64,000 nucleotides of DNA from Candidatus Spongiisociaceae bacterium (GTDB taxonomy: Bacteria > Actinomycetota > Acidimicrobiia > Spongiisociales > Spongiisociaceae): assembly GCA_965202665.1 (NCBI GenBank), contig OZ241841.1:2176001-2240000 (forward strand), read 5' to 3'. The position numbers were made by a program, and so were the translations under genes. Each line of letters starts with the position of its first letter. Position 1 is the stretch's first letter. Under the pieces are notes generated by a model. It made no database searches. It saw only the letters and a program-made list of their open reading frames with translations, and was not told the origin of the DNA. Positions 41,376-64,000 of this stretch are shown piece after piece.

Positions 41376-41464
41376 GGAGGGGTCGCATAGTCCGGTCTAG
41401 TGCGCGGCACTCGAAATGCCGTAGGGGTTTTCGCCCCTCGTGGGTTCGAATCCCACCCCCTCCG
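41376..41464 (+). tRNA. tRNA-Ser(CGA)
   Basis: Acceptor GGAGGGG/CCCCTCC, loop CTCGAAA, long variable arm, T-loop TTCGAAT. Confidence 0.95.
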
Positions 41465-41489
41465 CTTTTGTCGGTGGGTGGGTGGCGAT

Positions 41490-41517
41490 TTGACATATTG
41501 GGGGGGGGGGTTAGGGT
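41490..41517 (+). promoter_or_regulatory. Sigma70-type promoter with a G11 tract in the spacer
   Basis: TTGACA (41490-41495), 16-bp spacer TATT-G11-T, TAGGGT (41512-41517). Confidence 0.65.
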
Positions 41518-41606
41518 TTGGGGTGCTGGGCTTGTTGTGGGTTCGGCGGCCTGTTGCGGCGGCGGGTTTGGTATTGGTTCGCCGTTGGAGAGTTTGGAGG
41601 TTGGTG

Positions 41607-47600: not shown

Positions 47601-50600
47601 GTAACAGTCACCATCGCCTCCCCGTCCAGCAACGGCGCCACCCTGGCCGCCTGCCCCTCCTCCACCACTGATGTATGCGCTACCGGTTTGACCAGTAGCC
47701 AGCTGACGGTAACCATCCCCGCTGGGGAAACCAGTAGCACGGCTACTTTCCAGCTCACCGCCCGCGATGACACCACCGCCGACGATGATGAGAAACTGAC
47801 CGTCACCGGCTCCGCCACCGTCGGCGGCGCAACAGCGACCATCACCGGAACGGAAATGTCGGTACGCGATCCGGGGCGGGCGATCACCCTTAGTTTCACC
47901 GACACCGCCCAAACTCCCGCCGCGCTGACCGCGGTGGAAGAAGACGGCGGGGCGCAGACGGTGCGGGTGGTGGCCACCGTCGGGACGGCCCCCGCCGCGG
48001 ATACCGATGTAACGGTCACCGTAGGAGCCGCGGGCGGCACCGCCATTTTGGGAACGTTGGGGGATTACCTGCGTAGCACGGGGGAGGCGACGGTGACTAT
48101 CGCGGCGAATAATACCAGCGGAACCGCCGATGTGACTATCACTCCGGTAGTGGACAGGGTGACCGAAGATCACGAGACGATCCGCTTCGCGGGCGCCGCC
48201 ACCGGATACGCGATAGTACCAGCTGATTTGCAAATCACCGATCAAGATCGGGTTATCAAATTCACTTTGAATCCGGACACGCAAGATGAGTTGCCTTACA
48301 GACAAAATTCGATTAGTTTGTCCGCTGTCGCTGCTTTGGGAGGCACCTCCGGTGGCGTGTTCACTCCTTCCACGTCCTCTACCTACAGCGGAAGTATGAA
48401 TTTGTTGGGGTGGAGTCCTGAAGGTTATGGTCAGAATGCTCAGACTAGATCTGTTGCGACATATGTTATAGAGGACGGTGATCCCTTCTTTTTGCATTCG
48501 TATAGGAGATGGTTTTCTATTCCGTCTGGTTCTTTCGCCTCTTCGTCGCAAAGCATGGACCATAGCGTGGAGATAAACGATACGGCGGATCCGGATGAGG
48601 GGGTGAGACGGGTGGGAGCGAGACAGAATACGGTTCCGGCGGGGTTCGTTCAGGAACAAGCCTGGTTTAGGATACGGGACGTGGCGGATTCGCGGGTGGT
48701 GTTCGGGGTGGATACCGACGGTAACACTATGGGCAACCAGACTACGATTGAGGAGGGCGCTTCCGGGTCGGGGGTGGAGGTGTGGGCGGGATGGCCGCCG
48801 GGGGTTACCAATAACCGTCACGCGTCGCCGGTCACGGCCACTCTTACCATGGAGGAGGATACGGAACCGGGGGCGGGGGAGGCGGGGGACGCCGATTTTG
48901 ATTACGCTCCGCCGTCGCCGCTGTCGTTCACTATTCCCGTTAAGGTGGCGGAGGATCTTATGGCTACGCCTCCGGTGGTGGGTGTGTCTGGGTTGAGGAG
49001 TTCTTCGGGGACGTTGGCGGGTTTGTCGGTGGTTGATGATTCGATTGTGGAGGGCCCGGAGACGATAGCCTTTGGGGGGACTTCCAGTTTGGGCGCCGGG
49101 CATAGCGTTACGGGAGAGTTGACCATCGCCGACGACGACGCCGATATTACGTTGTCGGTGTTCCCGGCGGTGGTGGCGGAAGGGTCGGGGGCGCAGACGA
49201 TAACCGTCACCGCCCGCTTCGCGGGAACTACCTCGGTGTTGACAACGGCTACCAACGTGACGGTGACCATCGCGGCGGCGGCGTCGGATGGGGCGGTGGT
49301 GGACGCGGATGCGTGCCCGTCGGAGTCGGGGGATGATGTGTGTACTAATAAGGCGGGCAATCAGTTTACGGTTGCTATTCCGGCGGGTGAGTTGGAGGGC
49401 AGTGGCGTTTTCCAGTTGACCGCTCGGGAAGACTCCACCGCCGATGATGGGGAAGGGCTGATCGTTTCGGGGTCGGCCATGGTGGGGAGCGAGGCGGTGG
49501 AGGTGACGGGGGCGGCGATGACGGTTCATGATGCGGATAAGACGATCACGTTATCTTTTACCGATACCGCTCAGACCCCGACGGCGTTGACCGAGGTGGA
49601 GGAGGATGGGGGTGCGCAGACGGTGCGGGTGGTGGCTACCGCTCCGGCGGCGGTGGGCGCGTCGCCGGTGACGGTTTCGGTGACGGTGGGCGCGGCGGGC
49701 GGGGAGGCGGCGCTGAACGCTGATTACACCCGTAGTTCCGCTTCGGCGACGGTTACTATCCCCGCGCAGGGCACGAGCGGTTCGGCGGATGTGACTATAA
49801 CGCCCCGGTCGGATACGATTACCGAAAATCAGGAGACAATAGTTTTCACCGGTTCCGCTTCCGGGTACGGGGTGGTGGGGGCTGGTTTGGGAATCGCGGA
49901 TCAGGATCGGTACATTCGGATGTCCCCCACCGGCGGTGACCGGTTTAATGAGCCCCCTGTTGTGTTTGCTGGTCATTCGGTGGGCGCTAAGGCTGATTTG
50001 GGTGGTGTAACCGATGGGGTTTTCACCGCTTCGACGGCTTCCACGTACAGTGTTGCTTTGAACAATTTGCGGGTGACGATGCGGGGAGTGACCGCGACGG
50101 AGGGGATAGCCGGGTCGCCGGTAGGGCCGAGGGATTTCGTTTGGACCGGTAATGGAGGTGGTGTCGACTCGCGGTTTTTGTCTATCCCGGCTGGTTCTTT
50201 GTCTGCTACGGCGGTTCCTCATACTTTACAGTTGTTTCGTTATGCCAGGGAGGTGGAGCCGCTGGAAACGATAGAAGTGGTGGCTACTGAGCCGGCGGGT
50301 TTCACTGTCGTCCCGGGGATTATCAGCATTTTGGACACAATTCAGACTCAGCTTACCTTGCAGGTGGATACCGATCGGGTGGAGAGCGGGAATCAGAGCG
50401 TGTTAGCGGAGGGCGCTGCTGGTTCCAGTGTGGATGTGTCGGGAAGATACCGGGGTACGAGTAACAAGTTGGGGGAGGACACGGTGGTTACTTTGTCGAC
50501 GGCTGTGGAAACCCCCGGGGCGGGGAAGGCTACCGCGGCTGATTTCACTTATGCGCCGTCGTCGCCGAACTCTTTCACCATCCCGCAGGCGGCGGTCTCT

Positions 50601-53600
50601 TCGTCGGTTGCGGCGACGTTGGCTGGGTTGACGGTTGTGGATGATGCGATCGTGGAGGGTTCGGAAACGTTCCGGATTACCGCTGCTTCTTCGCAGACGT
50701 TGCGGATTACGGGTGCTTCTTCGTCGGGGGCGGTTGCGGCGGCGACGGTGACTATTTGGGATGATGATGCTGATATTGATTTGTCGGTGTCCCCGTCGGT
50801 GGTGGCGGAAGGCGTGGGGGCGCAGACGATAACGGTCACCGCCCGTTTCAAGGGTTCCAGCACTGTGTTGACGGAGGCGGTGGATGTGTTGGTGTCGGTG
50901 GCGGGCGCGTCGGGGGGCGCGGCGTTGGCGGCTGCGCCGTGTCCGCAGGCGTCGGGGGATGCTTGTACGGATAAGACGGGCAATCAGTTTACGGTTACTA
51001 TTCCGGCGGGTTCGTTGTCGGCTAACGGAACGTTCCAGTTGACCGCCCGTGATGATAACGTCGCCGAGGGGGCGGAGGCTTTGACTGTTAGCGGTTCGGC
51101 TATGGTGGGGGGTTTGGCGGTGGATGTGGAGTCGGCTGTGGTGAACGTGGTGGATCGGGGCATTGAGTTGTCGGTGAGTAGCGGTGGGTCGGCGTTGACC
51201 GGGTTGGGGGAGGACAGCGGTTCCACCACCGTGCGGGTAACCGCCACTTTGCCGGTCGCGTCGAGTACGCCGGTGGTGGTGGGGGTGAACGTGACGGGCG
51301 GGTCCGCCACTTTGGATGATGACAGTATGTTCGGGGCGGGGGAGGATTTTCGGGTTTCTTATCCGCAGGGTTCCCCGCCGGCGGGTTACGGGATGGGGAT
51401 TTCCATTCCCGCGGGGCGGGTCAGCGGTTGGGCGGATATTGTGGTGGCGGTGAACGACGACCGGGCGGCGGAGGGGGCGGCGGAGACGATATCCGTGGAT
51501 GGGGCGGTGGCGAGCGGGAGCGTGCTGGCGGTGGTGGACACCGCTTTTGATATCACCGACAACGACTCCGGTATAACTCTGAACGTAACCGCCGACGCGT
51601 TGGAAGAAGACGGCGACGGGAGAGCGGCCCGGGTGACCGCCTCTTTGGCGGGAACCACCTCCCAGATCGGGGTCGCCACCGTCGTAACGTTGTCGTTCAC
51701 GGCGGGGGCTGGTACGGAAGCGGCTGATTTCACCGCTCCCGGGGCCGGCAGTGAGATAACGGTGACCATCCCGGCTGGCTCGGTCAGCAGTTCCTCCACC
51801 GCTCTGACCGGTTTGGGTATAACCGATGACGCTATCGCCGAGGTGGGGGAAACCATCCAAGTGGGGGGAACCACCCCCGGTCTGTCGGTTACTCCCGCCT
51901 CGCTGACTATTCAAGACGACGACTCGGTGATAGTCCTAACCGCCAGCGCGGCGGCGGCGGAAGGCGGAACTGGGTCGGGGATTACCGTGTCGGCCGCTTT
52001 CCAAACCGGGACCACCTCCTCCGAAATCGCCACCGCCACCGCGGTGACGCTCACCGTGGGGGACGGGACCGCGGTCAGTCCCGCCGACTACCAAAACAGC
52101 GGAACATACACCGTGACCATACCCGCCCAAGCGACCGGCGCCGCCGCCGGAGTATCCCTGGCCGGCCTGACTGTAAAACATGATGACATAACCGAAGGGC
52201 GGGAGACGATCATTATCAGCGGAACCTCCACTTTGGGCGCCGCTGCTTCCGCGGTGTTGGCGATCGCCGACGCCGACACCGCCCTCACCCTGAGCGCTAC
52301 CCCCGATTTGCTGGTGGAAAGACCCAACCATTACATTGTGACCGTCACCGCCGCCTTCGACAACGTAGCCTCTTCCGCCCGTACTGCGGCTGTTCCGGTG
52401 ACGGTCACCCTCGCCGACGACACCGCCACCCACGGCACCAGCAACGACTGGTACACCAACCTGCCCGCCAACCGGCAGCTGACGGTGAACATCCCCGCCG
52501 GACGGACCAGCGGCGCATCCACCTTCCGCATCGTCGCCCGCGCCGACAGCACAGGGGAATCCACCGAACGGGTTTCCCTCACCGCTACCGCGCAGGTAGA
52601 CGGCTCTGCGGTGACCGCCACTTCCGCCCGGTTGGAAATCGTCGACCAAGGCGTGACTCTGGGCTGGGCCAGCAACACCGGAACCCCCCTGACCGCCATC
52701 GCGGAGGACAGCGGAACCACCACCCTGCGCATAACCGCCTCCATACCCGTGGTAGCCCCCGCCGGAGGCGCCGTCATAGGAGTGAACATCGCCAACGGCA
52801 CCGCCGCCCCCGCCGCCGCCTCCACCGGTTTCGGAACCGGGGAGGACTACCGCATCACCCTGCCCACCAGTCCCGCCCCGCCCGCCGGATACGACCTAGC
52901 CGTCGCTATCTCCGCCGGGGAAACCAGCGGCCACAGAACGGTAACGTTGCAGGTAAACGACGACAACACCGCCGAGGGGGCGTCGGAGGGGGCTGACCCG
53001 GAAACTGTCCACATCGAAGGCGGTACCCTGACGCTGGGCGGATCCACCCTGCCGGTGGTGGGGGCCAACCTGAACATCACCGACGACGACCAAGCCCCCG
53101 ATGAAATAACCATCACTCTGCAAACCCCCGGCGGGGCCGACCTCGCCCAAATATTCGAAACAACCGCCACCACTCCGGTGGTTGTAAAAGCCGCCTACCA
53201 GGGTACCAACACTCTGCCCCACTCGGTGATCGTCCCCCTGGGAGTAGCCAAAGTCGGCGACACTGCCATACCCGACACGGACTACCGGGACGTAACCTCG
53301 CCCCCTTCCATTACCATCCCCGCCTACCAATCGCATGGAATGGCCCGTTTCGATCTAGAAGCCATCGACGACGATGATCCTGAAAGCCCCGAAACGATCA
53401 CCGTACGAGGCGACCCCGCCGACACCCTGACCGCCTTCACCGTCGGTGAAGACACCCTAACCCTCGTCGACGACGAAAGCGCCGTAACCCTCTCCCTGGA
53501 TGTCACCCAAGCCCCCGAAGGAACCCGCCAAAATGTTACCGTGAAAGCCGCCTTCTCGGCCGGCGTCACCCAAACCGCTCAGAAAACCATCCGAGTAACC

Positions 53601-54974
53601 GTAACCGACGGAACCGCCACCGCCGGAGAAGACTACCAAACCCATGCCCCGTTCGATATCAGAATCCCCGCCAACAGCAACTACGCCACCACCAACATCA
53701 CCCTCAACCTCACCCCCGACGACCGCGTCTACGAAGGCAACGAAACCCTGGAACTGACCGGATCGCACTCCCAGTTCACCGTCAGACCCGTCACTTTCAC
53801 CATCACCGAAAACGACGCCCAACCCAACCGCATAACCCTATCCGCCAGCCCCAACCGAATAAACGAAGGCCAAACCGCAAACGTAACCATCACCGCCTCC
53901 CTCGGCTCAGTCGCTCTAACCCAAGACATGCAAGTTCCCATCCGTTTGGGAACCGGAGAATCTTACCAACCCGGCCCCGGCGCCCACACCATCCGCATCC
54001 CCGCTGGCCAAACCAGCGGAAACATCCAAATAAGAATACAAATAAACGACGACAACACCCGTGAGGACGCCAAACAAATTCGCATAACCCCCGGCGCCGT
54101 TGCCGGATTCACCGTCACCACCACCGCTATCACCATCCCCGCCAACGACGCCCCCGCTGTCACCACCACCCCCACCGGCGGTGGCGGAGGAGGTGGTGGC
54201 GGTGGAGGAGGAGGTGGTGGTGGCGCCCCAGCTCCGCCCCCCGCAGGAGGGGGAGGGGGCGGTGGAGGCGGTGGAGGAGGGGCCCCGCCCCCACCCGCCG
54301 GAGGAGGTGGCGCCCCGCCCCCGGCTGGTCCCGCTGGACCTGTCGCGCCGGTTGCGCCTCCGCCCGCGCCGGTGGTCTGCCAGGGACGGTTCTGCGACGA
54401 TGACGGCAGCGTCCACGAAGACAACATCGAGTTGATGGCCGTATGGGGTATAACCATCGGATGCGACGCCAACGACTCCACCAAATACTGTCCCAGTGCG
54501 CAAATCACCCGTCGGCAAATGGCCACTTTCATCTACCGGGCAGTCAATCCCCGCTGGCCCATCCAGTTCCCCACCGGCATAGAAATCAACGATGTCCCCG
54601 CCGACGCCAGCTACCGTTCCTACGCCGACTGGCTGGTAAGCATCGGGGCCTTCCAGCTGGACGACGGGAACTTCAATCCCCGGGGCATAGTAACCCGAGC
54701 CGATATGGCGGTGATGATGGTAGCCGCTTTCCCCCATATCCAGGCCGTATCCGAGTCGCAAAACCTGTTCGCGGACACCGGCAACTTGGACGCGGCGGTG
54801 GTGCGGGCTATTGAAGGCATAGCCGATAGCGGAGTGACCAGGGGATGCACCACCACGCCGCCTCTCAGGTACTGCCCCAACAATCCGGTGACCCGGGCGC
54901 AGATGGCGTCCTTCTTCGTAAGGGTAATCAACCAAGCCCCCGCCGCCGACGACGCCGCAGGCGCAAGTTCATAA
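41607..54974 (+). CDS. Giant (~4,455 aa) secreted surface protein: Calx-beta/Ig-like super-repeats, Gly/Pro linker, SLH-like anchor
   Basis: ATG 41607 after GGAGG; signal-peptide-like segment; repeated DD.IVEGPET and VTIPAG domains; C-terminus homologous to that of 18-7337. Confidence 0.88.
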   Translation: MGRMSGLGSAGGVRALGLGLVVGGVRRVLGLGLAVVLVVGLLPLVPVGVVGQAQKATVSITYRDGGAVVGVNEGEEVRLKLTVEFAGGTAHKGGSIYVQTGGTATRHTDYGMGKDDNCCSTATQFFDNFIDNAIIDWSTGSGTVSTNFTFRAVNDTLFEYYESFKLAVQTFSTGGFQYNDVGFSIRDRDRSLGVSYSVSEVGESAAGQWRSGTVTLSRGEVSGGVFVPATANWTSYGVTPLQVKVVDGTAKNEVSGVTDERRDFVFSHFNDAVVANRRIVSVAKGQVSGTVGNVGFRVLSEVGPRVAEPPEVFYVTVDTSPVWGAPVTIVDDDVTIALSSSSSNSSFAGFAESDIPQPVTVTARFLHAASSVIPTDTVVNVSVKSFSDSPVLTGGGAVVSSGACPQSSGDVCLDVGNSFTVTIPAGELSGSRTVLMTARDEGGTAEGVEGVGFDGSASVGGEAVFVYGHAIRLYDADDPKVIGLSLHEAATGEAGLSSVDEGAAKAVRVRATMTGSWQSVWESQYTRVVWVTPGSVSGSAVLGSCTGSGQSRVCTGDFGRNTGEVTVTMQPKPASQATVGDVTITAYDDTVTEDGESVVFWGRANSQWVVAPAMLTINDADRHVDLGVSPSTIAEPASGSARSDFLFTARFGQMVDNVFVPSTSSTVGSAFSISDFSFVNGSARAEDDNGIPLDFYPVDTANVSRAVSIVAGSVSGTLTWPFNSYADNEAEGTEDFSFRVWSSTAGYSVGVPRVNITDPDSVLNLSIDADGGTTGVQPLREGESSSGAMATAAFPAGSSTIGSATSVALSAGLGTPGAGVASAADFTYAPASPLTVSVGANSVSGSAALGGLTVVDDGVVEGPETFVLSGVVTGAVGVSAADSSVTIVDDDADIDLTVSESSVLEGAGEQAITVKAAFRGSSSVLAAATDVAVTLASAASGGAVLSSAVCPQTSGDVCSDKTNNQFTVSIPAGATSGSATLRLTARDDGNAEGGEGLVLSGTASVGGAAVSVTSANISVFDPGQAIDLSLTDTAQTPVVLTAVGEDGGARVVRVTATAPAAVSAETVVTVRMGLGGSAVSSCSGSGQSRVCTGDFGTVADTSTITIPSGGTTGSVDVTVTPFEDTIAEEDETIRVGGSAGGYAVRGADLTITDQDRTVGVGVGMGEAVYGEGGDPQSGWATRSQCMTSAPFSRTVTGRLGGLSAEGVFTAATSSTLGSNVRGRVRTVDGTATYNQDYSSDGFAVDTMPTAWEFITIAAGSTSGTATVQLVSCVDDVAEGDETYQMTISSLPAGFGAHPQVMTVTDDDSRPGLRGTISEDAGGTVGVEAFLPAGSSELTDPQVVSLTSVTADSAGTADFSYPSPAPVLLTIPAGSTSVSGAIPGLAITDDGSVEGPERLTLGGTDASGAAVSGSLAIVDDDAVIDVLVSPAEVLEQAAAQQIGVTARFRGETSALTAATAVTVTLAGAQNGATLAAACPATSEDACTDQANNQFTISIPAGSTEASGSFMLTARSDNAADNDEDLTVSGAATIGGEAAVVEGTELTIFDPGRSIALSFTDTASTPVPLVDVGEDGGAKVIRVVASAPVAPTSAVTVEVVVGAEGTTAGAGDYSSSSDRVSVTIAANDTSGTADVTITPASDTITEDLETIRFAGSATGYAVVANDLVIQDQDRAVKVMAAEGDLVVREPREGEALTNQYNGILKFFRGMTAVLGGVSGGVFTPSTSSTYSSNLGMRVRVDAGTATVGGQTSTTDDIFHEHGEADDPLEVTINAGALSGNVNIVYAPTAVPVVAVLKDTVAEPDQIFYFRPAVPSGWTAVRETITIQDSNQIAITVDTDSATGTQTTLAEGATGSGVTVSAAYYNATTSVITSATNVTLSAAAPTPAGAGKAVATDFTYSPATPNAITFPANNATPSATATLAGLTVTDDAIVEGPETITVSGSSSLGDATPATITIVDDDDDITLSVFPASVAEGSGAQTIAVTAAFAGTTSALTTATDVTVTIASPSSNGATLAACPSSTTDVCATGLTSSQLTVTIPAGETSSTATFQLTARDDTTADDDEKLTVTGSATVGGATATITGTEMSVRDPGRAITLSFTDTAQTPAALTAVEEDGGAQTVRVVATVGTAPAADTDVTVTVGAAGGTAILGTLGDYLRSTGEATVTIAANNTSGTADVTITPVVDRVTEDHETIRFAGAATGYAIVPADLQITDQDRVIKFTLNPDTQDELPYRQNSISLSAVAALGGTSGGVFTPSTSSTYSGSMNLLGWSPEGYGQNAQTRSVATYVIEDGDPFFLHSYRRWFSIPSGSFASSSQSMDHSVEINDTADPDEGVRRVGARQNTVPAGFVQEQAWFRIRDVADSRVVFGVDTDGNTMGNQTTIEEGASGSGVEVWAGWPPGVTNNRHASPVTATLTMEEDTEPGAGEAGDADFDYAPPSPLSFTIPVKVAEDLMATPPVVGVSGLRSSSGTLAGLSVVDDSIVEGPETIAFGGTSSLGAGHSVTGELTIADDDADITLSVFPAVVAEGSGAQTITVTARFAGTTSVLTTATNVTVTIAAAASDGAVVDADACPSESGDDVCTNKAGNQFTVAIPAGELEGSGVFQLTAREDSTADDGEGLIVSGSAMVGSEAVEVTGAAMTVHDADKTITLSFTDTAQTPTALTEVEEDGGAQTVRVVATAPAAVGASPVTVSVTVGAAGGEAALNADYTRSSASATVTIPAQGTSGSADVTITPRSDTITENQETIVFTGSASGYGVVGAGLGIADQDRYIRMSPTGGDRFNEPPVVFAGHSVGAKADLGGVTDGVFTASTASTYSVALNNLRVTMRGVTATEGIAGSPVGPRDFVWTGNGGGVDSRFLSIPAGSLSATAVPHTLQLFRYAREVEPLETIEVVATEPAGFTVVPGIISILDTIQTQLTLQVDTDRVESGNQSVLAEGAAGSSVDVSGRYRGTSNKLGEDTVVTLSTAVETPGAGKATAADFTYAPSSPNSFTIPQAAVSSSVAATLAGLTVVDDAIVEGSETFRITAASSQTLRITGASSSGAVAAATVTIWDDDADIDLSVSPSVVAEGVGAQTITVTARFKGSSTVLTEAVDVLVSVAGASGGAALAAAPCPQASGDACTDKTGNQFTVTIPAGSLSANGTFQLTARDDNVAEGAEALTVSGSAMVGGLAVDVESAVVNVVDRGIELSVSSGGSALTGLGEDSGSTTVRVTATLPVASSTPVVVGVNVTGGSATLDDDSMFGAGEDFRVSYPQGSPPAGYGMGISIPAGRVSGWADIVVAVNDDRAAEGAAETISVDGAVASGSVLAVVDTAFDITDNDSGITLNVTADALEEDGDGRAARVTASLAGTTSQIGVATVVTLSFTAGAGTEAADFTAPGAGSEITVTIPAGSVSSSSTALTGLGITDDAIAEVGETIQVGGTTPGLSVTPASLTIQDDDSVIVLTASAAAAEGGTGSGITVSAAFQTGTTSSEIATATAVTLTVGDGTAVSPADYQNSGTYTVTIPAQATGAAAGVSLAGLTVKHDDITEGRETIIISGTSTLGAAASAVLAIADADTALTLSATPDLLVERPNHYIVTVTAAFDNVASSARTAAVPVTVTLADDTATHGTSNDWYTNLPANRQLTVNIPAGRTSGASTFRIVARADSTGESTERVSLTATAQVDGSAVTATSARLEIVDQGVTLGWASNTGTPLTAIAEDSGTTTLRITASIPVVAPAGGAVIGVNIANGTAAPAAASTGFGTGEDYRITLPTSPAPPAGYDLAVAISAGETSGHRTVTLQVNDDNTAEGASEGADPETVHIEGGTLTLGGSTLPVVGANLNITDDDQAPDEITITLQTPGGADLAQIFETTATTPVVVKAAYQGTNTLPHSVIVPLGVAKVGDTAIPDTDYRDVTSPPSITIPAYQSHGMARFDLEAIDDDDPESPETITVRGDPADTLTAFTVGEDTLTLVDDESAVTLSLDVTQAPEGTRQNVTVKAAFSAGVTQTAQKTIRVTVTDGTATAGEDYQTHAPFDIRIPANSNYATTNITLNLTPDDRVYEGNETLELTGSHSQFTVRPVTFTITENDAQPNRITLSASPNRINEGQTANVTITASLGSVALTQDMQVPIRLGTGESYQPGPGAHTIRIPAGQTSGNIQIRIQINDDNTREDAKQIRITPGAVAGFTVTTTAITIPANDAPAVTTTPTGGGGGGGGGGGGGGGGAPAPPPAGGGGGGGGGGGGAPPPPAGGGGAPPPAGPAGPVAPVAPPPAPVVCQGRFCDDDGSVHEDNIELMAVWGITIGCDANDSTKYCPSAQITRRQMATFIYRAVNPRWPIQFPTGIEINDVPADASYRSYADWLVSIGAFQLDDGNFNPRGIVTRADMAVMMVAAFPHIQAVSESQNLFADTGNLDAAVVRAIEGIADSGVTRGCTTTPPLRYCPNNPVTRAQMASFFVRVINQAPAADDAAGASS

Positions 54975-55043: not shown

Positions 55044-55358
55044 TCAAAGAGCCAATAATGCTCTTATCGCGTCGACGCCGCGAGTCACGTTACCGTTCAG
55101 ATAGTCGCGATGGCTTTCAATCAGGGCTTCCATCTCTTCAGGATCCCCCAGTATGGAAAGGGTTTCTTCCAGCGACTCCAGGGTTTCCCGCCCCTGGGGA
55201 GACAGTCCCCCATCGACGCTTCGCGCCCGCAGAGCCGCAAGCCGGCTTTCCAGAGATTCCATTTCCCGCTGGGCGGTCAGCAGGCCGTCGTTCCGTTGCA
55301 CCCGATCAAGAAACTCCACGACCTGCTGGTCGACGGTGAGCGTTGGTTGGTTGGTCAT
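55044..55358 (-). CDS. Orphan antitoxin-like protein (YefM-type C-terminus)
   Basis: GGAGGAG RBS; ESLEETLSILGDPEEMEALIESHRDYLNG; paralog at 63756. Confidence 0.65.
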   Translation of the reverse strand: MTNQPTLTVDQQVVEFLDRVQRNDGLLTAQREMESLESRLAALRARSVDGGLSPQGRETLESLEETLSILGDPEEMEALIESHRDYLNGNVTRGVDAIRALLAL

Positions 55359-55444
55359 GTCGCTCCTCCAATATATCCGCGTCTGCCCGCCTCGCCGGGG
55401 TTGGCGGGTATAGGATAATGGTAGGTCTTCGTCAGGAGGGACGG

Positions 55445-58400
55445 ATGATTGACAGTTTCGCCGGGCTGACCGGTCGGAGGGTTTCGGTGGACGGCGCCGG
55501 CGCCCCGGCCGAGGCCCGGGATTTGCAGGCGGTGATGTTGGACGCATCCTTTGAGGTGTTGCTGGCCGGGTGGGATTCGGCCCGTCCTCCCGCTCCGGGC
55601 AAACTGCTGTCCCTCCACCGGTGGCGGCTCGGCTCACAGAACTTTTCGCTGGTGGTTGCGGTTACCGACCGACAGGGCAAGGTGTGGCTGGCCGGTCCGG
55701 GCGGGAGAGACCAGCCGGTGGGTCCGCTCACCGAATCGGAGGCCGCCCGCATGTTGCAGGCCGCTCTGGAGGAACCGTCCGGCCCGTCCGCCCATAGACG
55801 GATAGCCGACCTGCTGAAAGCCCGTCGCAAGGACGATTCCGTTCCCGGCCTGGGCGGCGAAGGCCTGTTCGCCCAGCACTACCTGGCCAAAGTGCTACCC
55901 GGTCAGGGCGTTTGGCGGGAATCCGTCGCCCGGGCCCGCCCCTGGCTGTGCCTGCGCGGCATGGCCCTGATAGAAGCGATGGGGTTTTCCGCCCTTCGCC
56001 CCGTTGGGAACGGGTGCGTCCTGACAGATAGGATATCTCAAGGGAACGGGGGGGGGGGTAGGCTTGGTGAGAGCCCTAATGCGGTGGCGGTGTTGCTTGA
56101 CCGCGTCGAGCATTTCGATGCGGGCAGCACGCGTTTCGACGCTTCCCCGGTAGAATACGGCCTGTCCCTGGCCCGCGAGGAGCAGGCGGGTTGGCTGATT
56201 CTCCTGCGCGGTTCGCAAATCCGGCTTTATTCGGCCAAACCGGGCGTGGGAGTGGGCAGCAGGGGGCTGACCGAAACCTTTTTTGAGCTGGACCTGGCCC
56301 TGCTGGAAGAAGACAAGGCGGGCTACCTTGATTTAGCGTTTTCCGCCGCCGCCCTAGTCGAAGACGGAACGGTAAAACAGTTGCTGGAGGGCTCACGCGA
56401 CTACGCGGTGGGTTTGGGGGATCGCCTGCGGGAGCGCATCTACGTGGAGGCCATCCCCGAATTGGCGGTAGCGGTGGCTAAAGAACTGGAACGGCTGGAC
56501 CACCAGGCTGGCAAAGATCTGGCCCGCGCCTACCGAATCACCCTCCGCATCCTGTTCCGGTTGCTGTTCCAAGCCTACGCGGAAGACTGCGGGTTGTTGC
56601 CTTACGGAACCAACGAAGAGTACACCAAATATTCGCTGAAACAACACGCCCGCGACCTGGCGGATCCTCCCGAAGAAATGTTTGATCCCCGCTCCCATAA
56701 AACTTGGGACGAACTTATGTTGGTGTGGGGAGTCATCGACACCGGTGACGCCGTCATGGGGGTTCCCGCTTACAACGGTGGTCTGTTCCTTTCCGACCCG
56801 GAGCGTTCCCCCGATGGCGCCCTCATTTCTCAAATGCGGTTGGATAATGCGGTGGTGGGCCATGCCCTGCGCCGACTGCTGGTGGATGTGGACAGCCTTG
56901 GCGTTCCCGGACCGGTGGATTTTCGGTCGCTGTCCATTCGGGAGTTCGGGACCATCTACGAAGGCCTGCTGGCTTCGTCCCTGTCCCGGGCCGACCAAGA
57001 CCTGACTTTGGACAAAAAACAGACCTACGTCCCAGCCAAGGCGGCGGACAAAGTGGAAGTGCGGGCAGGTGAGATTTATTTCCACAACACCTCCGGCATG
57101 CGCAAATCAGCAGGTGTTTATTTCACCCCCCGGTTTGCAGTAGACCACCTGTTGGAACGGTCGCTGGTCCCGGTGCTCAGGGATCATCTCAAAAAAATCA
57201 ACGCAATGTTGGATGAAGACGATGATGCGGGCGCCTACGAGTCGTTTTTCGATTTCCGAGTGTGCGACCCGGCAATGGGGTCGGGCAACTTCCTAGTGGC
57301 GGCCATTGATCATATGGCCGAGGAGATGACCCCGTTTTTGCGTGCCCACCCTATACCGGGTGTGACCGGTGAGTTGAACCGATTGGAGGCGGCGGCAAGG
57401 AAAGAGTTGGGCGATGCGGCCGATCAGTATTCGTTGGATCGGTCAATGTTGCTCCGCCGCCAGATAGCCCGCCACTGCATCTACGGCATCGACAACAACG
57501 ATATCGCAGTGGAGTTGGCAAAAGTCGCCGTGTGGTTGCACACGTTTGTCCCCGGTTTGCCAATGTCCACCTTGGACCACAATCTGGTGTGCGCTGATTC
57601 GCTGACCGGAATAGAGTCCATTGAAGAGGCTATAGAAATACTGGACCCGCAACGCAATCCGGGGGTGGTGTCGCTGATGCGCGGGCCCCTCGAGGAAAGC
57701 CTGGAGGAGTCCCGAAGTCATCTCCAAGATGCGGCCAAAATTTCGGAATCCACCACGGCCGAAATCAGGCAAGCGGACAAGCACCGGGACAGGGCCGTTC
57801 AAGTCGCCGGTAAAGCCAAGGCCATCTTTGACGCGGCGGTGGCCGCCCGCATCGGCGAGTTGGGCGATTTGACGATGGTAGAGCCGGAAGAGATTGTCCG
57901 TATGTCCCAGCAAACAGAGGTTCAAGACCGGATAGCTATTCTCAATCCTGGTCATATGCCTTACCTGTTTCCGCAAGTTTTCCTCCGAGACCCCTCAGGG
58001 TTTGATGTAATGGTTGGCAATCCTCCCTGGGAAAAAATTAAAGTCGAGGAACATGCCTGGTGGGGTTTACGCTTTCCAGGTTTACGGGGATTACCTTTGG
58101 TGGCAAAGCGAGAGAGGCTTAAAACCCTAAAACACGACCGCCCTGATCTGGTGGATGAATATGAACAGGCTGTTACCCTGACCGCAGAGTTGCGGAAGAT
58201 TATAAGCAAGGGACCTTATCCTGGAATGGGTACTGGTGATCCTGACCTCTTCAAAGCCTTCTCATGGCGGTTTTGGAAGTTATCTCGCGATGGCGGTGCT
58301 GTAGGTATTGTTTTGCCCTCTGGTGTATTAAAAGGTAAGGGTTCGGAAAGATGGCGTAAGCAGGTTTTCGAGGAGTGTTGTTTTGTTGATTTAGCTCCTT

Positions 58401-58906
58401 TGATAAACACAGGGGGCTGGGTTTTTAATGATGTGCATAAGCAGTATATAGTAGGTTTGATGGCTATAGGAAAGGGTAGCGAACAATTTGGTTCCGTACG
58501 TATCAGAAATCTTTGCCGAAGTGTGAGCGATTTAGCACGAGTTGATGCTAGTAATGTGGTGCAAATAGATGAGCTTTTGGCTTGGACACCTGAAGCTCTT
58601 TTCCCTTTATTTCCTAGCACGGATGCTATTAAGGTTTTTAGAAAAATGATTAAGTACCCCAGAATAAAAAGAAGCGAGCGTCAGCGAGCGTCAGCGAGCG
58701 TCAGCGAGCGTCAGCGAGCGTCAGCGAGCGTCAGCGAGCGTCAGGTACAGCCTCTACAAGCTACCACAAATTGGAGGACAAGTCCAGTAACCGAATTACA
58801 CACAAGAAAAGACAGAAAGTATTTCTTAGGAGCAGAACTTCTTGGCGAGCATTACCCATTAGAGAACTCGAAACCACGCCCGACAGACATAGGTTCACAG
58901 CAATGA
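55445..58906 (+). CDS. Eco57I/type IIG-like adenine methyltransferase, N-terminal and catalytic part (phase-variable)
   Basis: AGGAGGG RBS; YNGGLF, FGTIYEGLL, RKSAGVYFTP, CDPAMGSGNFL, IYGID, VGNPPWEK. Confidence 0.88.
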   Translation: MIDSFAGLTGRRVSVDGAGAPAEARDLQAVMLDASFEVLLAGWDSARPPAPGKLLSLHRWRLGSQNFSLVVAVTDRQGKVWLAGPGGRDQPVGPLTESEAARMLQAALEEPSGPSAHRRIADLLKARRKDDSVPGLGGEGLFAQHYLAKVLPGQGVWRESVARARPWLCLRGMALIEAMGFSALRPVGNGCVLTDRISQGNGGGGRLGESPNAVAVLLDRVEHFDAGSTRFDASPVEYGLSLAREEQAGWLILLRGSQIRLYSAKPGVGVGSRGLTETFFELDLALLEEDKAGYLDLAFSAAALVEDGTVKQLLEGSRDYAVGLGDRLRERIYVEAIPELAVAVAKELERLDHQAGKDLARAYRITLRILFRLLFQAYAEDCGLLPYGTNEEYTKYSLKQHARDLADPPEEMFDPRSHKTWDELMLVWGVIDTGDAVMGVPAYNGGLFLSDPERSPDGALISQMRLDNAVVGHALRRLLVDVDSLGVPGPVDFRSLSIREFGTIYEGLLASSLSRADQDLTLDKKQTYVPAKAADKVEVRAGEIYFHNTSGMRKSAGVYFTPRFAVDHLLERSLVPVLRDHLKKINAMLDEDDDAGAYESFFDFRVCDPAMGSGNFLVAAIDHMAEEMTPFLRAHPIPGVTGELNRLEAAARKELGDAADQYSLDRSMLLRRQIARHCIYGIDNNDIAVELAKVAVWLHTFVPGLPMSTLDHNLVCADSLTGIESIEEAIEILDPQRNPGVVSLMRGPLEESLEESRSHLQDAAKISESTTAEIRQADKHRDRAVQVAGKAKAIFDAAVAARIGELGDLTMVEPEEIVRMSQQTEVQDRIAILNPGHMPYLFPQVFLRDPSGFDVMVGNPPWEKIKVEEHAWWGLRFPGLRGLPLVAKRERLKTLKHDRPDLVDEYEQAVTLTAELRKIISKGPYPGMGTGDPDLFKAFSWRFWKLSRDGGAVGIVLPSGVLKGKGSERWRKQVFEECCFVDLAPLINTGGWVFNDVHKQYIVGLMAIGKGSEQFGSVRIRNLCRSVSDLARVDASNVVQIDELLAWTPEALFPLFPSTDAIKVFRKMIKYPRIKRSERQRASASVSERQRASASVSERQVQPLQATTNWRTSPVTELHTRKDRKYFLGAELLGEHYPLENSKPRPTDIGSQQ
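56048..56058 (+). repeat. G11 homopolymer within the MTase gene (currently in frame)
   Basis: AAC-G11-TAGG, encoding NGGGG. Confidence 0.85.
58673..58744 (+). repeat. Perfect 10-bp tandem repeat (AGCGAGCGTC)x7 within the MTase gene
   Basis: Directly visible at 58673-58742 plus AG; no stop codon in any frame. Confidence 0.97.
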
Positions 58907-59649
58907 AAGATAACCTGTGGCCAGTCTATGGTGGACGTTCTTTTAATATTTGGTGCCCAGATACGGGTAAATATTATGCGGCAACCGACCCTGATGCTAT
59001 CACTGAGTATCTCCAAGGGAAGCGAGAGCGTAGCAGGACCAGTTTTGCTGAAATGCCGCAAGAGTGGCTTGATGATTTAGATACTCTTCCTTGTAAGCAT
59101 CCCCGTATTGCTTTTTGTGATGTTGCGAATAGTGTAGATAGTAGAACGATAATCGCGGCTCTTGTACCGCCGAATATAGTGATTACAGAAGTAGCACCAT
59201 ATCTGATATGGCCTTCAGGGGAAGTTAGCGATCAAGCCTTCCTACTAGGGGTGTTATCATCGATGATTCTCGATTGGTACGCTCGTCGCATTGTATCGAC
59301 TCATTTCAAGTTCTACATCTTTAATTCTTTGCCGGTGCCGGATGCTGATCCTGGGGATCCGGTTGTTCGGCGGGTGGTGGAGATTTCGGGGCGGTTGGCG
59401 GCGGTGGATGAGCGGTTTGCGGACTGGGCGGAGGAAGTGGGGGTGCCGGTGGGGACTTTGCAGGAAGAACCGGAGCGGTCGGACGCCATCTACGAACTGG
59501 ACGCCTGCGTGGCTTTGCTCTACGGCTTGGATGAAGACGACCTGCGAATCATCTACGAAACCTTTCACGAAACGACCGACTATTCGCAACGGCATGTGGC
59601 GGTGCTGGCCCATTTCCGCAGATGGCGGGAAGAGCGGGAACCCCTGTGA
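58903..59649 (+). CDS. C-terminal target-recognition part of the MTase (separate frame; ATGA overlap with the upstream stop)
   Basis: WPVYGGRSFNIW, PRIAFCDVANSVDSRTIIAALVP, LLGVLSSMILDWYAR, ELDACVALLYGL; frame open back to the 10-bp repeat. Confidence 0.82.
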   Translation: MKDNLWPVYGGRSFNIWCPDTGKYYAATDPDAITEYLQGKRERSRTSFAEMPQEWLDDLDTLPCKHPRIAFCDVANSVDSRTIIAALVPPNIVITEVAPYLIWPSGEVSDQAFLLGVLSSMILDWYARRIVSTHFKFYIFNSLPVPDADPGDPVVRRVVEISGRLAAVDERFADWAEEVGVPVGTLQEEPERSDAIYELDACVALLYGLDEDDLRIIYETFHETTDYSQRHVAVLAHFRRWREEREPL

Positions 59650-62600
59650 CCGCCTCCCGCAGGCATTTTCCCCCTGTTTTCGCCACCAATCGAGCCGGGA
59701 CCGAAACCCGGGCGGGGGAGCGGGTGGCGGACGAGATCAACCGGTTGCTGTCCGGGATGCGTACCCAACTGGCCGACGCCCCCCGTCTGGCCATCGCCAC
59801 CGCTTTTCTAAATACGGGCGGATATGAACTGCTGGCCGACGAACTGGAGCAGGCCCCCCGGGTGCGCCTGCTGTTGGGGGCGGAACCGGACATTTCCGCC
59901 ACCCGGCCCGTCCTGCGGCGCATATCCAAAGAGCAGATCGGGGAAGCTCTGCGGCGGCACGAGCAGTGGCTGGCCTCCGAACGGGATTTGACCGGTTTCA
60001 CCCGGGAGGCCGACCGAGCCGCCCGGCGGATGGTGAAATGGCTGCAGGCTAAAACCGAAGCGGGGGAGCGGCGGGTGGAAGTGCGCCGGTACGCGGACGG
60101 GTTTTTGCACGGCAAAGCGTTCATCACCGAGCATCCCAGCTTGCCGGCGGTGCTGGCCGGGTCGTCCAACTTCACATACGCCGGGCTGGCGTCCAACGCC
60201 GAACTCAACCTGGGATACCCGTCCGGGGAGCACACCCATCTGGTGCAGGAATGGTTCAACGAACTGTGGGAACACTCCGCCCCCTACCGGTTGGACGAGT
60301 TGTACGCCGCCCGCTGGGAACCGCACGCCCCATGGCTGATTTTCCTGCGGATGCTGTGGGAACTGTACGGCGGGCATTTTGACGAAGACGACGACCTCCG
60401 GGCCCGCACCGAACTGGGACTGACCGGTTTCCAGCGGGAAGGGGTGGCCCGCATGTTGCGCATTTTGGAGGAGCACGGCGGGGTGATCGTGGCCGACGAA
60501 GTCGGTTTGGGGAAAACGTTTATGGCCGGTGAGGTGATCAAACGGGCCGCTTCCGTCAGCCGCCAGCAGGTGCTGGTCATCGCCCCCGCCGCCCTCAAAG
60601 CCGGAATGTGGGAGCCGTTTCTGAAACAATACGATTTTCCCCGCCGGGTGGAAGTGATGTCCTACGAAGAGTTCCGCAACCGCTGGGGGGACGCGGAACG
60701 GGAAGCAATGCGCAGCCAGTTGGACGAATACGCCCTGGTGGTGGTGGACGAAGCCCACAATTTGCGCAATCCGAACGCCCAGCGCACCGAAGCGGTCAAC
60801 GCCCTGGTGGGCGGCTCCCATCCCAAACGGCTGATGTTGCTCACCGCCACCCCGGTCAACAACACCCTGTTCGACCTTCATTCCCTGGTGTCGCTGTTCA
60901 TCCGCAACGACGCAGCTTTCGCAGCCCGGGGCATCCCCTCCATCTACCAATACATAAAAACCGCCGAAGAAATGGATCAGGACGCCCTTTCCCACGAGCA
61001 CCTGTTCGACCTGTTGGATCAGGTGGCGGTGCGCCGCACCCGCCGTTTTGTCAAAAAGCACTATCGGGGCGAAAAGATCAAAGACCACCGGGGCGAGGAG
61101 AAAACCATCCAGTTCCCCCAGCCGGAGTTGAAAAGACTGGACTACGACCTTGACCAGGCGGGTCTGGAGTTGGTGGAAGCGGTCGTTTACGCGTTGGAGA
61201 ACTCCGAAGAGGACGCCCTCCGCTACGAGGAACGCCAGCGCGATCCGGACCGGTTGATGCTGGCCCGTTACACCTCCGGGGCCTACCACATGGAAGCGAA
61301 CCACGAATTCGACTATCAGGTGTCCAACGCCGGGTTGCTCCGCTCCACCCTGCTGAAAAGGCTGGAATCATCCCCCATCGCTTTGGCCAACACTTTGGGG
61401 AGAATGGTTGAATCCCATCGGGCTTTCCTGGAGGCGTTGGCGGAAGGCTGGGTGCTGGCGGGTGAAGCCCTGCGGGAATGGACCTCCTCCGATGCGGAAG
61501 ACTTCGACGAGTTTCTGGAAGGGTTGGACGACCGCGCCTCCGCCGGGGCGGACCCCGTCGACCGCTATCACGTAGCAGAATTGCGAGAAGACGTGGAAAG
61601 CGACTTGGAAATGCTGGGCCGGTTGCGGGAGCGGGTCGGGGAGGCGGCGGACGGGCCCAACCCCAAATTGGACAAGTTGCTGGAAAGGCTGGGGGAGATC
61701 GCCGCCGAAGCCTGTTTGGTCAGCCGGGACGGGGTCAGTTCGGGGAACCGGCGCAAAACCATCGTTTTCTCCAGTTTCGCCGACACCATTAAGTCGGTGG
61801 CCGAAAAGGTGTCGGTGCGGGTGGTGAACTGCGCCGACGACGATCCGCTGGCCGACTTCCGGCAACGGATAGCGAAGCCGGTGTTCGGGGCCAAAAGGGG
61901 ATTCAATCCGGAAACGCGGGCCCGCATTATCGCCGGGTTCGCCCCCGAAACGGCGGGCGGGAGCAAAGGGGGCGAAGATAAATACGACCTGCTGTTCACC
62001 ACCGACATCCTGTCGGAAGGGGTGAACCTGCAACAGGCGGGGCGGATCATCAACTACGACCTGCCTTGGAATCCGATGCGGGTGGTGCAACGGCACGGGC
62101 GCATCGACCGGATCGGTTCTCTGCACAGCCGGGTGTTCATCGACTGCTTCTTCCCTTCCGCCCATCTGGACCGGCTGCTGGGGCTGGAGGCGAGGCTGCG
62201 CCGCAAACTGGCTTTGGCGGACGCGGCGGTGGGAACCGGGCAGGTGTTGCCCGGATTCGAATCGGGCGACGCGAAAGTGTTCAGCGACATTGAACGGTTG
62301 CGGTGGGAAGACGCCGGTTTTCTGGAAGAACGGGGAGGGGCGGCGGCCCTGTCCGGCGAAGAATACCGGCGGCGGTTGCGGGCGGCCGCCGCCCACGCCT
62401 CGGCCGAAATGGAACAAGCGCGGGCGTTGCCCTACGGCTCCGGCTCCGGTTTCATCAACCCCCGTTTCGCCGGCTCCGGGTACGTGTTCTGCATCCGGGT
62501 GGGGGAGGGGGGAGGCCACCCGCCCCGGTTCCGGTTTGTTCCCGTCGACGGCGACTGGGGTCCCCTCCTGGACGGCGACGACCGGCCGGTTGTGAAATCG

Positions 62601-63074
62601 GATACGCTGACCGCGCTGGTGGCCGCCGACCCGGGGGATGAAACCGCCGCCCGGGAATTATCCGAGGTGGCCTACGACCGGGCTTTCGACGCCTGGGAGG
62701 CGGCCCGGGAGGACGTATACCGGGAGTGGATGCGCCTCACCGATCCCAGCAACCTGCGTCCCGACGTCCCCAAGGCGTTGCGGGAAGCCACCGAGATGGT
62801 GCACAAACATGGGGATGTCCTGACTACGGAAGACAGGGATGATCTGGTGAAACGGCTCAACACCCGCCCCAGCCGCCGCATAGTGAAAACCATCCGGGAG
62901 CTGGTCAGATCCGAGGAGGAGGCGCCGGCCGCCAAAATCCGGCGGTTGCGCCAGTTGGTGGAAGAAGCCGGCTTGCAACCCCCTGAAATCCCCGACCCCC
63001 TGCCGGAAATCACCCGGGACGACATCCACCTGGTGGCATGGACCGCCGTCAACGTCCCGGCCAAGTACAGTTAG
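59646..63074 (+). CDS. SNF2-type helicase with N-terminal PLD-like nuclease domain
   Basis: LHGKAFI...GSSNFT...NAELN; ADEVGLGKT, DEAH, LTATP, SEGVNLQ, QRHGRIDRIG; GTGA overlap with the upstream gene. Confidence 0.92.
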   Translation: MTASRRHFPPVFATNRAGTETRAGERVADEINRLLSGMRTQLADAPRLAIATAFLNTGGYELLADELEQAPRVRLLLGAEPDISATRPVLRRISKEQIGEALRRHEQWLASERDLTGFTREADRAARRMVKWLQAKTEAGERRVEVRRYADGFLHGKAFITEHPSLPAVLAGSSNFTYAGLASNAELNLGYPSGEHTHLVQEWFNELWEHSAPYRLDELYAARWEPHAPWLIFLRMLWELYGGHFDEDDDLRARTELGLTGFQREGVARMLRILEEHGGVIVADEVGLGKTFMAGEVIKRAASVSRQQVLVIAPAALKAGMWEPFLKQYDFPRRVEVMSYEEFRNRWGDAEREAMRSQLDEYALVVVDEAHNLRNPNAQRTEAVNALVGGSHPKRLMLLTATPVNNTLFDLHSLVSLFIRNDAAFAARGIPSIYQYIKTAEEMDQDALSHEHLFDLLDQVAVRRTRRFVKKHYRGEKIKDHRGEEKTIQFPQPELKRLDYDLDQAGLELVEAVVYALENSEEDALRYEERQRDPDRLMLARYTSGAYHMEANHEFDYQVSNAGLLRSTLLKRLESSPIALANTLGRMVESHRAFLEALAEGWVLAGEALREWTSSDAEDFDEFLEGLDDRASAGADPVDRYHVAELREDVESDLEMLGRLRERVGEAADGPNPKLDKLLERLGEIAAEACLVSRDGVSSGNRRKTIVFSSFADTIKSVAEKVSVRVVNCADDDPLADFRQRIAKPVFGAKRGFNPETRARIIAGFAPETAGGSKGGEDKYDLLFTTDILSEGVNLQQAGRIINYDLPWNPMRVVQRHGRIDRIGSLHSRVFIDCFFPSAHLDRLLGLEARLRRKLALADAAVGTGQVLPGFESGDAKVFSDIERLRWEDAGFLEERGGAAALSGEEYRRRLRAAAAHASAEMEQARALPYGSGSGFINPRFAGSGYVFCIRVGEGGGHPPRFRFVPVDGDWGPLLDGDDRPVVKSDTLTALVAADPGDETAARELSEVAYDRAFDAWEAAREDVYREWMRLTDPSNLRPDVPKALREATEMVHKHGDVLTTEDRDDLVKRLNTRPSRRIVKTIRELVRSEEEAPAAKIRRLRQLVEEAGLQPPEIPDPLPEITRDDIHLVAWTAVNVPAKYS

Positions 63075-63755: not shown

Positions 63756-64000
63756 TTAACAGGTTCGGAGAGCCTTTACGGCGTCGGTTCCTTCGATAAA
63801 GTCGCCGTTCAGGTAGTCGCGGTACCCTTCAAACAAGGCTCCCATCGCCTCGGGATCCTGCAGGATGGAGAGGGTTTCTTCCAAAGATTCCATGTCTTCC
63901 CGCTCTTGGGCAGTCAGGCCGTTGACGCTACGCGCTTGCAATTCTGCGAGGGCGGCCTGCAGAGAGGCGATCTCCTGCGGGTCGCTCAACTTGCCGTTGT
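63756..64000 (-). CDS. Orphan antitoxin-like protein, paralog of 55044-55358 (5' end probably beyond window)
   Basis: LAELQARSVNGL...ESLEETLSILQDPEAMGALFEGYRDYLNG. Confidence 0.65.
   Translation of the reverse strand, partial: NGKLSDPQEIASLQAALAELQARSVNGLTAQEREDMESLEETLSILQDPEAMGALFEGYRDYLNGDFIEGTDAVKALRTC

Follow-up and report, generated by a model that had tools for sequence, protein, structure and literature searches.

Can the length of a simple repeat choose between alternative DNA-recognition segments of one enzyme, or does it only switch the gene on and off? The question is raised by a locus in a 64,000-nucleotide (nt) window of contig OZ241841.1 (assembly GCA_965202665.1, Candidatus Spongiisociaceae bacterium, positions 2,176,001 to 2,240,000; "the window" denotes this whole stretch), where a Type IIG-like methylase gene carries a 10-bp tandem repeat at the junction between its methyltransferase (MTase) part and its target-recognition domain (TRD). 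The textbook role of repeat slippage is to turn a gene on or off or to truncate its product, and changes among several specificities are said to require recombination. At this locus, each frame behind the repeat leads to one of two copies of a short TRD segment, or to a stop, and the frame is set by the repeat; replication slippage is therefore likely to switch specificity or turn the gene off, with the DNA otherwise not rearranged. We consider it probable that slippage moves the enzyme between two DNA specificities and an off state, with copy 1 working as part of a two-chain enzyme. The elements concerned are as follows.

58673..58744, plus strand: 10-bp perfect tandem repeat (AGCGAGCGTC)x7 (58673-58742 plus 2 nt), the frame selector, for which unit estimates differ between runs
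58772..58825, plus strand: cassette 1, WRTSPVTELHTRKDRKYF, of the xExH type, with variable T at 58790 and H at 58799, read with 3n+1 units
58788..58790, plus strand: TAA of the predicted off state (3n units), which ends the third frame and has no overlapping start codon
58843..58896, plus strand: cassette 2, WRALPIRELETTPDRHRF, of the RExE type, with R at 58861 and E at 58870, read with 3n+2 units and in frame with the TRD remainder
58903..58906, plus strand: ATGA, where the stop of the cassette-1 frame overlaps the start of the TRD remainder; predicted translational coupling, with a weak Shine-Dalgarno (SD) signal (-3.1 kcal/mol)

A sequence-only reading of the window had proposed a three-state switch with this arrangement, and its frame arithmetic was reproduced in silico. 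The array at the MTase/TRD junction comprises exactly 7.0 perfect units (58673-58742), and the two 18-codon copies follow out of frame with each other at 58772 and 58843, offset by 71 nt and identical at 9 of 18 residues and 28 of 54 nt. With 1, 4, 7 or 10 units, copy 1 (T-E-L-H) is read and translation stops at TGA 58904, overlapping the ATG 58903 that opens a 248-aa remainder. With 2, 5, 8 or 11 units, the copy-1 DNA is crossed without a stop, copy 2 (R-E-L-E) is read and the frame ends at 59647, whereas 0, 3, 6, 9 or 12 units lead to termination at TAA 58788, before either motif. From the likely start ATG 55445, with GGAGG just 5' of it, the products are 1153 aa at 7 units, 1394/1404 aa at 5/8 units (the fusion of about 1,400 aa that had been foreseen) and 1111/1121 aa at 6/9 units. 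The suggestion that selection keeps two frames open over about 100 AT-rich nt stood as to the openness, which exceeds chance, and needed correction as to the stretch, which spans 161 nt from array to ATG 58903 at 45% GC; among 20,000 shuffles, 87 kept at least two frames open over it, as did 1 of 88 low-GC coding windows taken from the methylase gene. A best 18-aa self-identity of 9 was reached in none of 300 shuffles (maximum 8). The AGCGAGCGTC array is unique to this site genome-wide, with a single lone copy of the unit elsewhere.

The search of related genomes for a repeat followed by a double cassette, which that reading had called for, returned the layout many times. We examined 174 homologous loci (L001-L013, L021 and L041-L200, the last group being the best 80 of 108 plus the best 80 of 212 matches, fetched with an alignment of repeat-bearing members), and 135 remained after removal of 12 without an anchor and 27 near-duplicates. 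Eighty carry a repeat, of which 77 hold several copies (2, 3, 4 and 5 copies in 27, 48, 1 and 1 loci) and three a single detected copy; the 55 repeat-free loci hold one copy (52) or none detected (3), and two copies in no case. The exceptions are thus L061, L081 and L153, with a repeat and one detected copy, and L170, L188 and L191, with neither repeat nor detected copy; the long junctions of L061 and L081 may contain a diverged second copy below threshold. The units of the first repeat comprise 30 sequences with lengths of 1, 2, 4, 5, 7, 8 or 10, never a multiple of three (77/77). The distance between consecutive copies is 2 mod 3 in 128 of 130 cases, and copy types differ within the locus in 27/27 two-copy and 47/48 three-copy loci. 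A stop-free path leads from the repeat to every copy numbered 1-3 (204/204) and to none of those numbered 4-5 (n=3), and the copy read in present assemblies is spread across all positions. Because most relatives hold three different cassettes in all three frames, the family design is one cassette per frame, and the window locus represents a form with two cassettes and one off frame. In a quick tree built from 87 of the 135 rows (48 were left out as short or with a stop within 1200 nt upstream), the multi-copy label needs 10 changes, at least 7 of them forced by strong branches, so the multi-copy layout is not one recent clade; label gains and losses are not distinguishable on this tree. Taken across these sequences, the layout is an evolved and conserved one, with an engineered look.

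The number of repeat units also differs between alleles. As in phase-variable methyltransferases, the repeat is perfect, lies within the open reading frame (ORF) and has a non-triplet unit (10 bp x7 here; 77/77 multi-copy loci), and unit number differs between near-identical alleles at the level of assemblies. For the window locus, found in marine and sponge metagenome runs, units were estimated from repeat-to-flank contig depth in eight runs, which is good to roughly one unit at best, giving means of about 5 (X1, X12), 7-9 (X10, X11) and 10.5-11.6 (X2-X5). Among the relatives, L162 and L165 are one unit apart, with flanks of 570 and 500 nt that are the same in both, and read copy 1 and copy 2, respectively; in L054, L121 and L123, which have 500 nt of downstream sequence in common, the copies read are 3, 1 and 2. 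The closest database protein, P0001, is in the fused state, with the same repeat peptide and an identical copy 2. Local misassembly, raised earlier as a possible refutation, was not borne out: contigs of 7 of the 8 runs carry both flanks up to the array, so the flanks are not misassembled. Strictly, 6 of 8 runs reach the array on both sides, as the upstream piece of X5 aligns only to 58565; X1 has a downstream gap, without cover at 58713-58910, and shows nothing either way.

The same relatives bear on whether the truncated copies are used. Codon comparisons indicate that these copies are under selection as peptides in their own frame, since the synonymous fraction is 0.72-0.80 there, 0.07-0.33 in the other frames and 0.80-0.84 in single-copy genes (pairs not independent). 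In strain X5, 3/3 substitutions in cassette 1 are synonymous in its own frame and non-synonymous in the fused frame. The stops of truncated copies have the form ATGA, GTGA or TTGA in 148 of 161 cases, compared with 969 of 1945 background off-frame stops. With copies located by a hidden Markov model (HMM), 129 of 162 non-fused copies are linked to the TRD gene by unbroken overlaps in one to five steps, compared with 23 of 104 control walks in single-copy genes, and the SD-like signal at TRD starts has a median of -5.3 versus -2.2 kcal/mol. Twenty-four loci lack any fused frame, and all of their copies relay to the TRD gene, which means that these loci, if working at all, work as two chains.

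A complex model of the window's own two chains scored 0.89, the best of three controls 0.00, against a mark that 116 of 157 solved pairs and 2 of 215 mismatched pairs attain. Contact agreement between runs was at least 76%, and the predicted local distance difference test (pLDDT) value of the partner at least 88. In the model, cassette 1 and the helix before the repeat lie in the interface, docked on the TRD remainder, with the repeat peptide outside. Because split-gene halves tend to pass by likeness to solved folds, the model speaks for fit, not for binding. Natural two-chain methylases exist (M.AquI, M.EcoHK31I; PMC3404938; published work is cited here and below from the parts of each paper that were consulted), and the split state is likely functional, judging from these comparisons.

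These data can be set against a plain on/off switch, in which only the fused frame would be active and cassette 1 would be a silent spare, recruited through recombination or deletion between the similar copies. A published Type IIG enzyme, Cj0031, switches on and off (PMC4889913), the usual form in the family is a fused gene with one copy, and the exact extra copies beyond three in L107 and L118 indicate that unequal recombination does occur. We nevertheless consider this explanation improbable, because the 24 loci without a fused frame keep every copy relayed to the TRD gene, changes in truncated copies are mostly synonymous in the frame of the copy itself, and no stop separates the repeat from any of the 204 copies numbered 1-3. 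Moreover, the window copies, at 28/54 nt alike, would be a poor recombination substrate.

What a specificity switch would change is suggested by the position of the cassette, which corresponds to the first TRD loop; repeat-free full-length homologs have one loop copy at this position. The single-copy alleles are the alternatives also seen among the cassettes, namely xELH, RELD and QGDLN, more rarely REIE, RELH and IELR, and co-vary as the pairs R..D, x..H and QG..N. AlphaFold models of the single-copy homolog L012 match gamma-class methylase-TRD folds (BseCI, CamA, PglX/BrxX, TaqI and MmeI). The TRD model of L012, cut just before the loop (pLDDT 84.8), aligns from its residue 1 to residue 670 of BrxX (Z 10.9, root-mean-square deviation (rmsd) 4.1, 181 aligned) and from its residue 6 to residue 678 of Salmonella PglX (Z 12.4, rmsd 4.0, 182 aligned). 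The register was taken from the ends of the aligned ranges with no gap assumed over 11 residues, and on that assumption model residues 12 and 15, the variable pair, coincide with K681/D684 in BrxX and with A684/S687 in PglX, named as the readers of base pair 2 (PMC11842806); Y642/K645 of MmeI also read position 2 (PMC4833311). The earlier reading had asked whether the motif lies at the DNA interface in structure predictions. The model of this homolog speaks for it, and the predicted role of loop residues i and i+3 is to read position 2 of a six-base site, the base pair that lies three positions 5' of the adenine to be methylated. A family-profile search of the PDB gave weak CamA matches only, none over the loop, and hhalign of single sequences and small profiles against BrxX did not fix the loop register.

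Several points weigh against a switch between two specificities. The loci were fetched with an alignment of repeat-bearing members and are related to one another, so the counts are not independent. The relay fails for 33 of 162 non-fused copies, with at least one failing copy in 18 of 77 loci, and the window's own SD signal is weak. Contigs of all eight runs break at the array, and X10 and X11, from one sample, gave 7.0-7.4 and 8.1-8.8 units, which is the error of the depth estimate. The loop register depends on the first-aligned residues of a homolog's model, gap-free over 11 residues, and is one off for Y642/K645 of MmeI; profile-profile alignment with PglX (hhalign) supports homology (probability 93.9) and places the loop downstream of K681/D684. 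Finally, swaps of these residues in BrxX gave degenerate, not clean new, motifs (PMC11842806), and in the MmeI family similar residues here go with different specificities (PMC4833311).

The BrxX swaps, made at the equivalent residues, and the failure of hhalign to reproduce the register would favor an alternative in which the switch is real and the loops do not have cleanly different targets, affecting instead stringency, activity, stability or sensitivity to phage inhibitors, or giving overlapping degenerate motifs. This appears unlikely, as the allele pairs co-vary exactly at the positions matching two independently named base-reading pairs, and copies of the same type almost never occur twice within the first three frames of a locus.

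Cassette 1 could also be used in one chain, if the ribosome shifted frame or hopped near the ATGA with no stop and restart. In L004 and L007, a second (AG)n immediately upstream of the TRD remainder allows either copy to be fused at the DNA level. Copy 1 is at present in the fused form in L007, so such a form occurs naturally; suppression of frameshifts at repeats has also been reported for a mod gene (bioRxiv 10.64898/2026.04.01.715767). However, the conserved overlap of start and stop, the SD-like signal and the chains of up to five overlaps fit re-initiation better, making a ribosomal shift very unlikely. That the locus is a decayed gene with a duplicated fragment, or an artefact of assembly, is scarcely credible: although the contig breaks mean that the unit count of the assembly could be off, the same layout recurs with 30 repeat units in 77 loci, the flanks are identical or near-identical in independent runs and the truncated copies evolve synonymously in their own frame.

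The three-state switch thus retains the support of the layout, own-frame selection, structural register and repeat variation. Beyond the frame arithmetic, the conserved layout and the selection on each copy as a peptide, the mechanism that we propose is as follows. Replication slippage would alter the number of units and with it the reading frame into the TRD. With 3n+1 units, as in the assembled 7, the MTase chain would end with the T-E-L-H loop and a 26-aa tail, and the ribosome would restart at the overlapping ATG 58903, so that the 248-aa TRD remainder joins the MTase chain. With 3n+2 units, a single chain with the R-E-L-E loop would be made, in which the cassette-1 DNA is read as a floppy linker, and with 3n units no loop would be made and the system would be off. 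The two active states would methylate sites differing three positions 5' of the target adenine, because loop residues i and i+3 are predicted to read that base pair, and the PLD-SNF2 helicase encoded downstream would be directed against sites set by the active loop. We also lean, with less assurance, towards a more general formulation: one repeat would select up to three frame-stacked base-reading cassettes, and overlaps would relay the ribosome to a shared remainder. Evolution would have employed this design at two or more recognition loops and paired it with additional repeats, giving defense methylases multi-state, recombinase-free specificity repertoires, a bacterial DNA-level equivalent of mutually exclusive exon choice.

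The remainder of the gene and its neighbor are organized as follows.

55445..58672, plus strand: 5' methylase part, with a degenerate restriction-endonuclease-like N-terminus and a gamma-class N6-adenine MTase, up to the MTase-TRD linker (Pfam, PADLOC, motifs)
58903..59649, plus strand: TRD remainder, 248 aa, a separate chain at 7 units and the fused C-terminus at 8 units (PADLOC PDLC03620 profile 1097-1371; alignment)
59646..63074, plus strand: PLD(HxK)-SNF2 helicase, the likely restriction effector (Pfam PLDc_2, SNF2 and Helicase_C; motifs)

As expected of a Type IIG enzyme, gamma-class N6-adenine MTase motifs (DPAMGSG at residue 608, GNPPW at 858) are followed by a TRD, an assignment that the fold matches share with Pfam (Eco57I over its cut-off, MmeI_Mtase and N6_Mtase) and PADLOC. 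Residues 52-1087 match positions 55-1104 of the PADLOC profile PDLC03620 (REase_MTase_IIG) with an E value of 2e-182, and the two gene pieces cover consecutive parts of this one profile (55-1104 and 1097-1371), the second match beginning at cassette 2. A PD-(D/E)xK motif is the endonuclease motif expected in a Type IIG polypeptide. No nuclease Pfam family was matched in the methylase, and no E/DxK was seen on inspection by eye of the N-terminal consensus of the methylase family (AVAVLL...LRGSQIRLY). Since no nuclease catalytic motif is apparent in the methylase, the earlier label of restriction-modification enzyme is better read as a Type IIG-like methylase with a TRD plus a separate PLD-SNF2 helicase. 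Gene content and motifs suggest that the helicase is likely the effector of restriction and the methylase the methylation and recognition subunit. The GTG start of the helicase overlaps the methylase TGA (GTGA; the ORF caller gives ATG 59622), and 98 of the 108 loci with enough sequence for the test have a PLD-SNF2 helicase downstream (57/63 multi-copy, 41/45 others). The closest named relatives are genomes of sponge-associated Acidimicrobiia.

Short similar ORFs lie on both sides of the methylase-helicase pair (window 55044-55360 and 63756-63998, minus strand), for which a family search gave no match of weight, and genome positions 2240184 and 2741151 hold further copies of the methylase's first 32-42 codons. 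Window positions 41400-54974 hold a repetitive 4524-aa ORF resembling giant surface proteins, with an anchor-like C-terminal region and a G11 run near its start. Genome-wide there are dozens of G or C runs of at least 11 bases and several other perfect microsatellites, which suggests that slippage switches may be widely used in this genome.

Related layouts were seen outside and within this family. A second Type IIG-like subfamily in the same hosts (L028, L031-L034 and L040) carries a repeat and, behind it, 2-3 out-of-frame copies of another TRD loop that comes later, the ...FR[DKN]IT[NR]ST[ND]xRT... segment, some copies ending at ATGA; the same design appears to be reused there at another recognition site. 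A third, more distant subfamily (L015, L016 and L023) has (GA)n and then TDLH-type and RELD-type copies in different frames, and in its relatives L022 and L025 a single copy stands without a repeat. At least two complete tandem TRD-remainder genes with different second loops are present in L049, L085, L090, L097 and L125, where the first tandem gene has, close to its end, a run of G or C that may control its completion and coupling and would so multiply the states. The second (AG)n of L004 and L007 restores the frame after either cassette, a frameshift-in/frameshift-out, single-chain version. In L011, of the pair L011/L036, nothing but the repeat lies between the MTase and a shortened TRD, the cassettes being missing, probably by deletion, and L035 has (AG)n inside the methylase domain of another gene.

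On this interpretation, all three reading frames would serve as a selector of alternative functional modules, at the price of a split, translationally coupled enzyme. The alleles would provide natural matched pairs differing in one base-reading loop, useful for reprogramming Type IIG, IIL or BREX-like specificity. It would further follow that many genes of this kind that are annotated as frameshifted or as pseudogenes in the genomes of sponge symbionts are active, and that populations of these symbionts may continuously diversify their anti-phage target sites.

Among known defense systems, BREX membership (PglX/BrxX) was rejected, as the NCBIfam BREX MTase models gave 16-20 bits compared with cut-offs of 400-900. 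The HKD-SNF2 effector resembles the Type-2 BR helicases (PMC12839542); Type-2 BR was likewise set aside as regards its partner genes, the two DUF499 matches in the genome both lying more than 300 kb away, whereas a DUF3780 search of the genome carries no weight, as it gave no match there nor any in the controls. For DISARM, partial DrmMI and DrmD matches were below the NCBIfam cut-off, and drmABC were not seen among the adjacent ORFs, to which this check was confined. MANTIS, described as having four components including an AAA+ ATPase, was also set aside. In fold, the locus shares with BrxX/PglX (PDB 9EWZ, 8C45) and MmeI (5HR4) a gamma-class N6 MTase with a TaqI-like TRD and, by prediction, a first loop whose i/i+3 pair reads base pair 2 (PMC11842806, PMC4833311), and differs from these single-chain, single-loop enzymes, to which its identity is about 11%. 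M.AquI and M.EcoHK31I are likewise methylases active as two polypeptides, but are C5 enzymes with a constitutive split and, in the parts of the source consulted, neither repeat nor alternative cassettes (PMC3404938).

Among phase-variable systems, Cj0031 of Campylobacter jejuni is a Type IIG methylase affecting phage restriction and differs in being on/off only (PMC4889913). In Type I hsdS (NgoAV; the extended HsdS of Mannheimia and Fusobacterium), slippage also switches between active specificities, but the truncated, full and extended subunits share one coding frame, and the out-of-frame sequence, as far as the source was consulted, encodes no alternative module (PMC7383803). Together with that to NgoAV, the closest published likeness is to JHP1272 (Hpy99XIV) and HP1353-HP1354 (HpyAXVI) of Helicobacter pylori, Type IIG/IIL methylases in which repeat length alters recognition without recombination, shifting GGWTAA to GGWCNA (PMC3936762), and in which a spare module replaces part of the TRD. 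There, a second tract appends an extra C-terminal domain to a complete, active enzyme; here, no C-terminal recognition domain is added, and the repeat precedes most of the TRD and selects short (18-codon), internal, mutually exclusive cassettes, one per frame, of which the upstream ones depend on a TRD remainder translated as a separate chain. In the literature searched, including the reviews PMC12707154 and PMC13076061, with incomplete coverage of subscription papers and supplements, no methylase was found whose alternative cassettes are selected by reading frame. The earlier view that the design is undescribed therefore holds for cassettes arranged one per frame and not for repeat-driven specificity change as such, which is already published for Hpy99XIV and NgoAV; what is new compared with these and Cj0031 is the choice between cassettes in different frames, with a coupled remainder.

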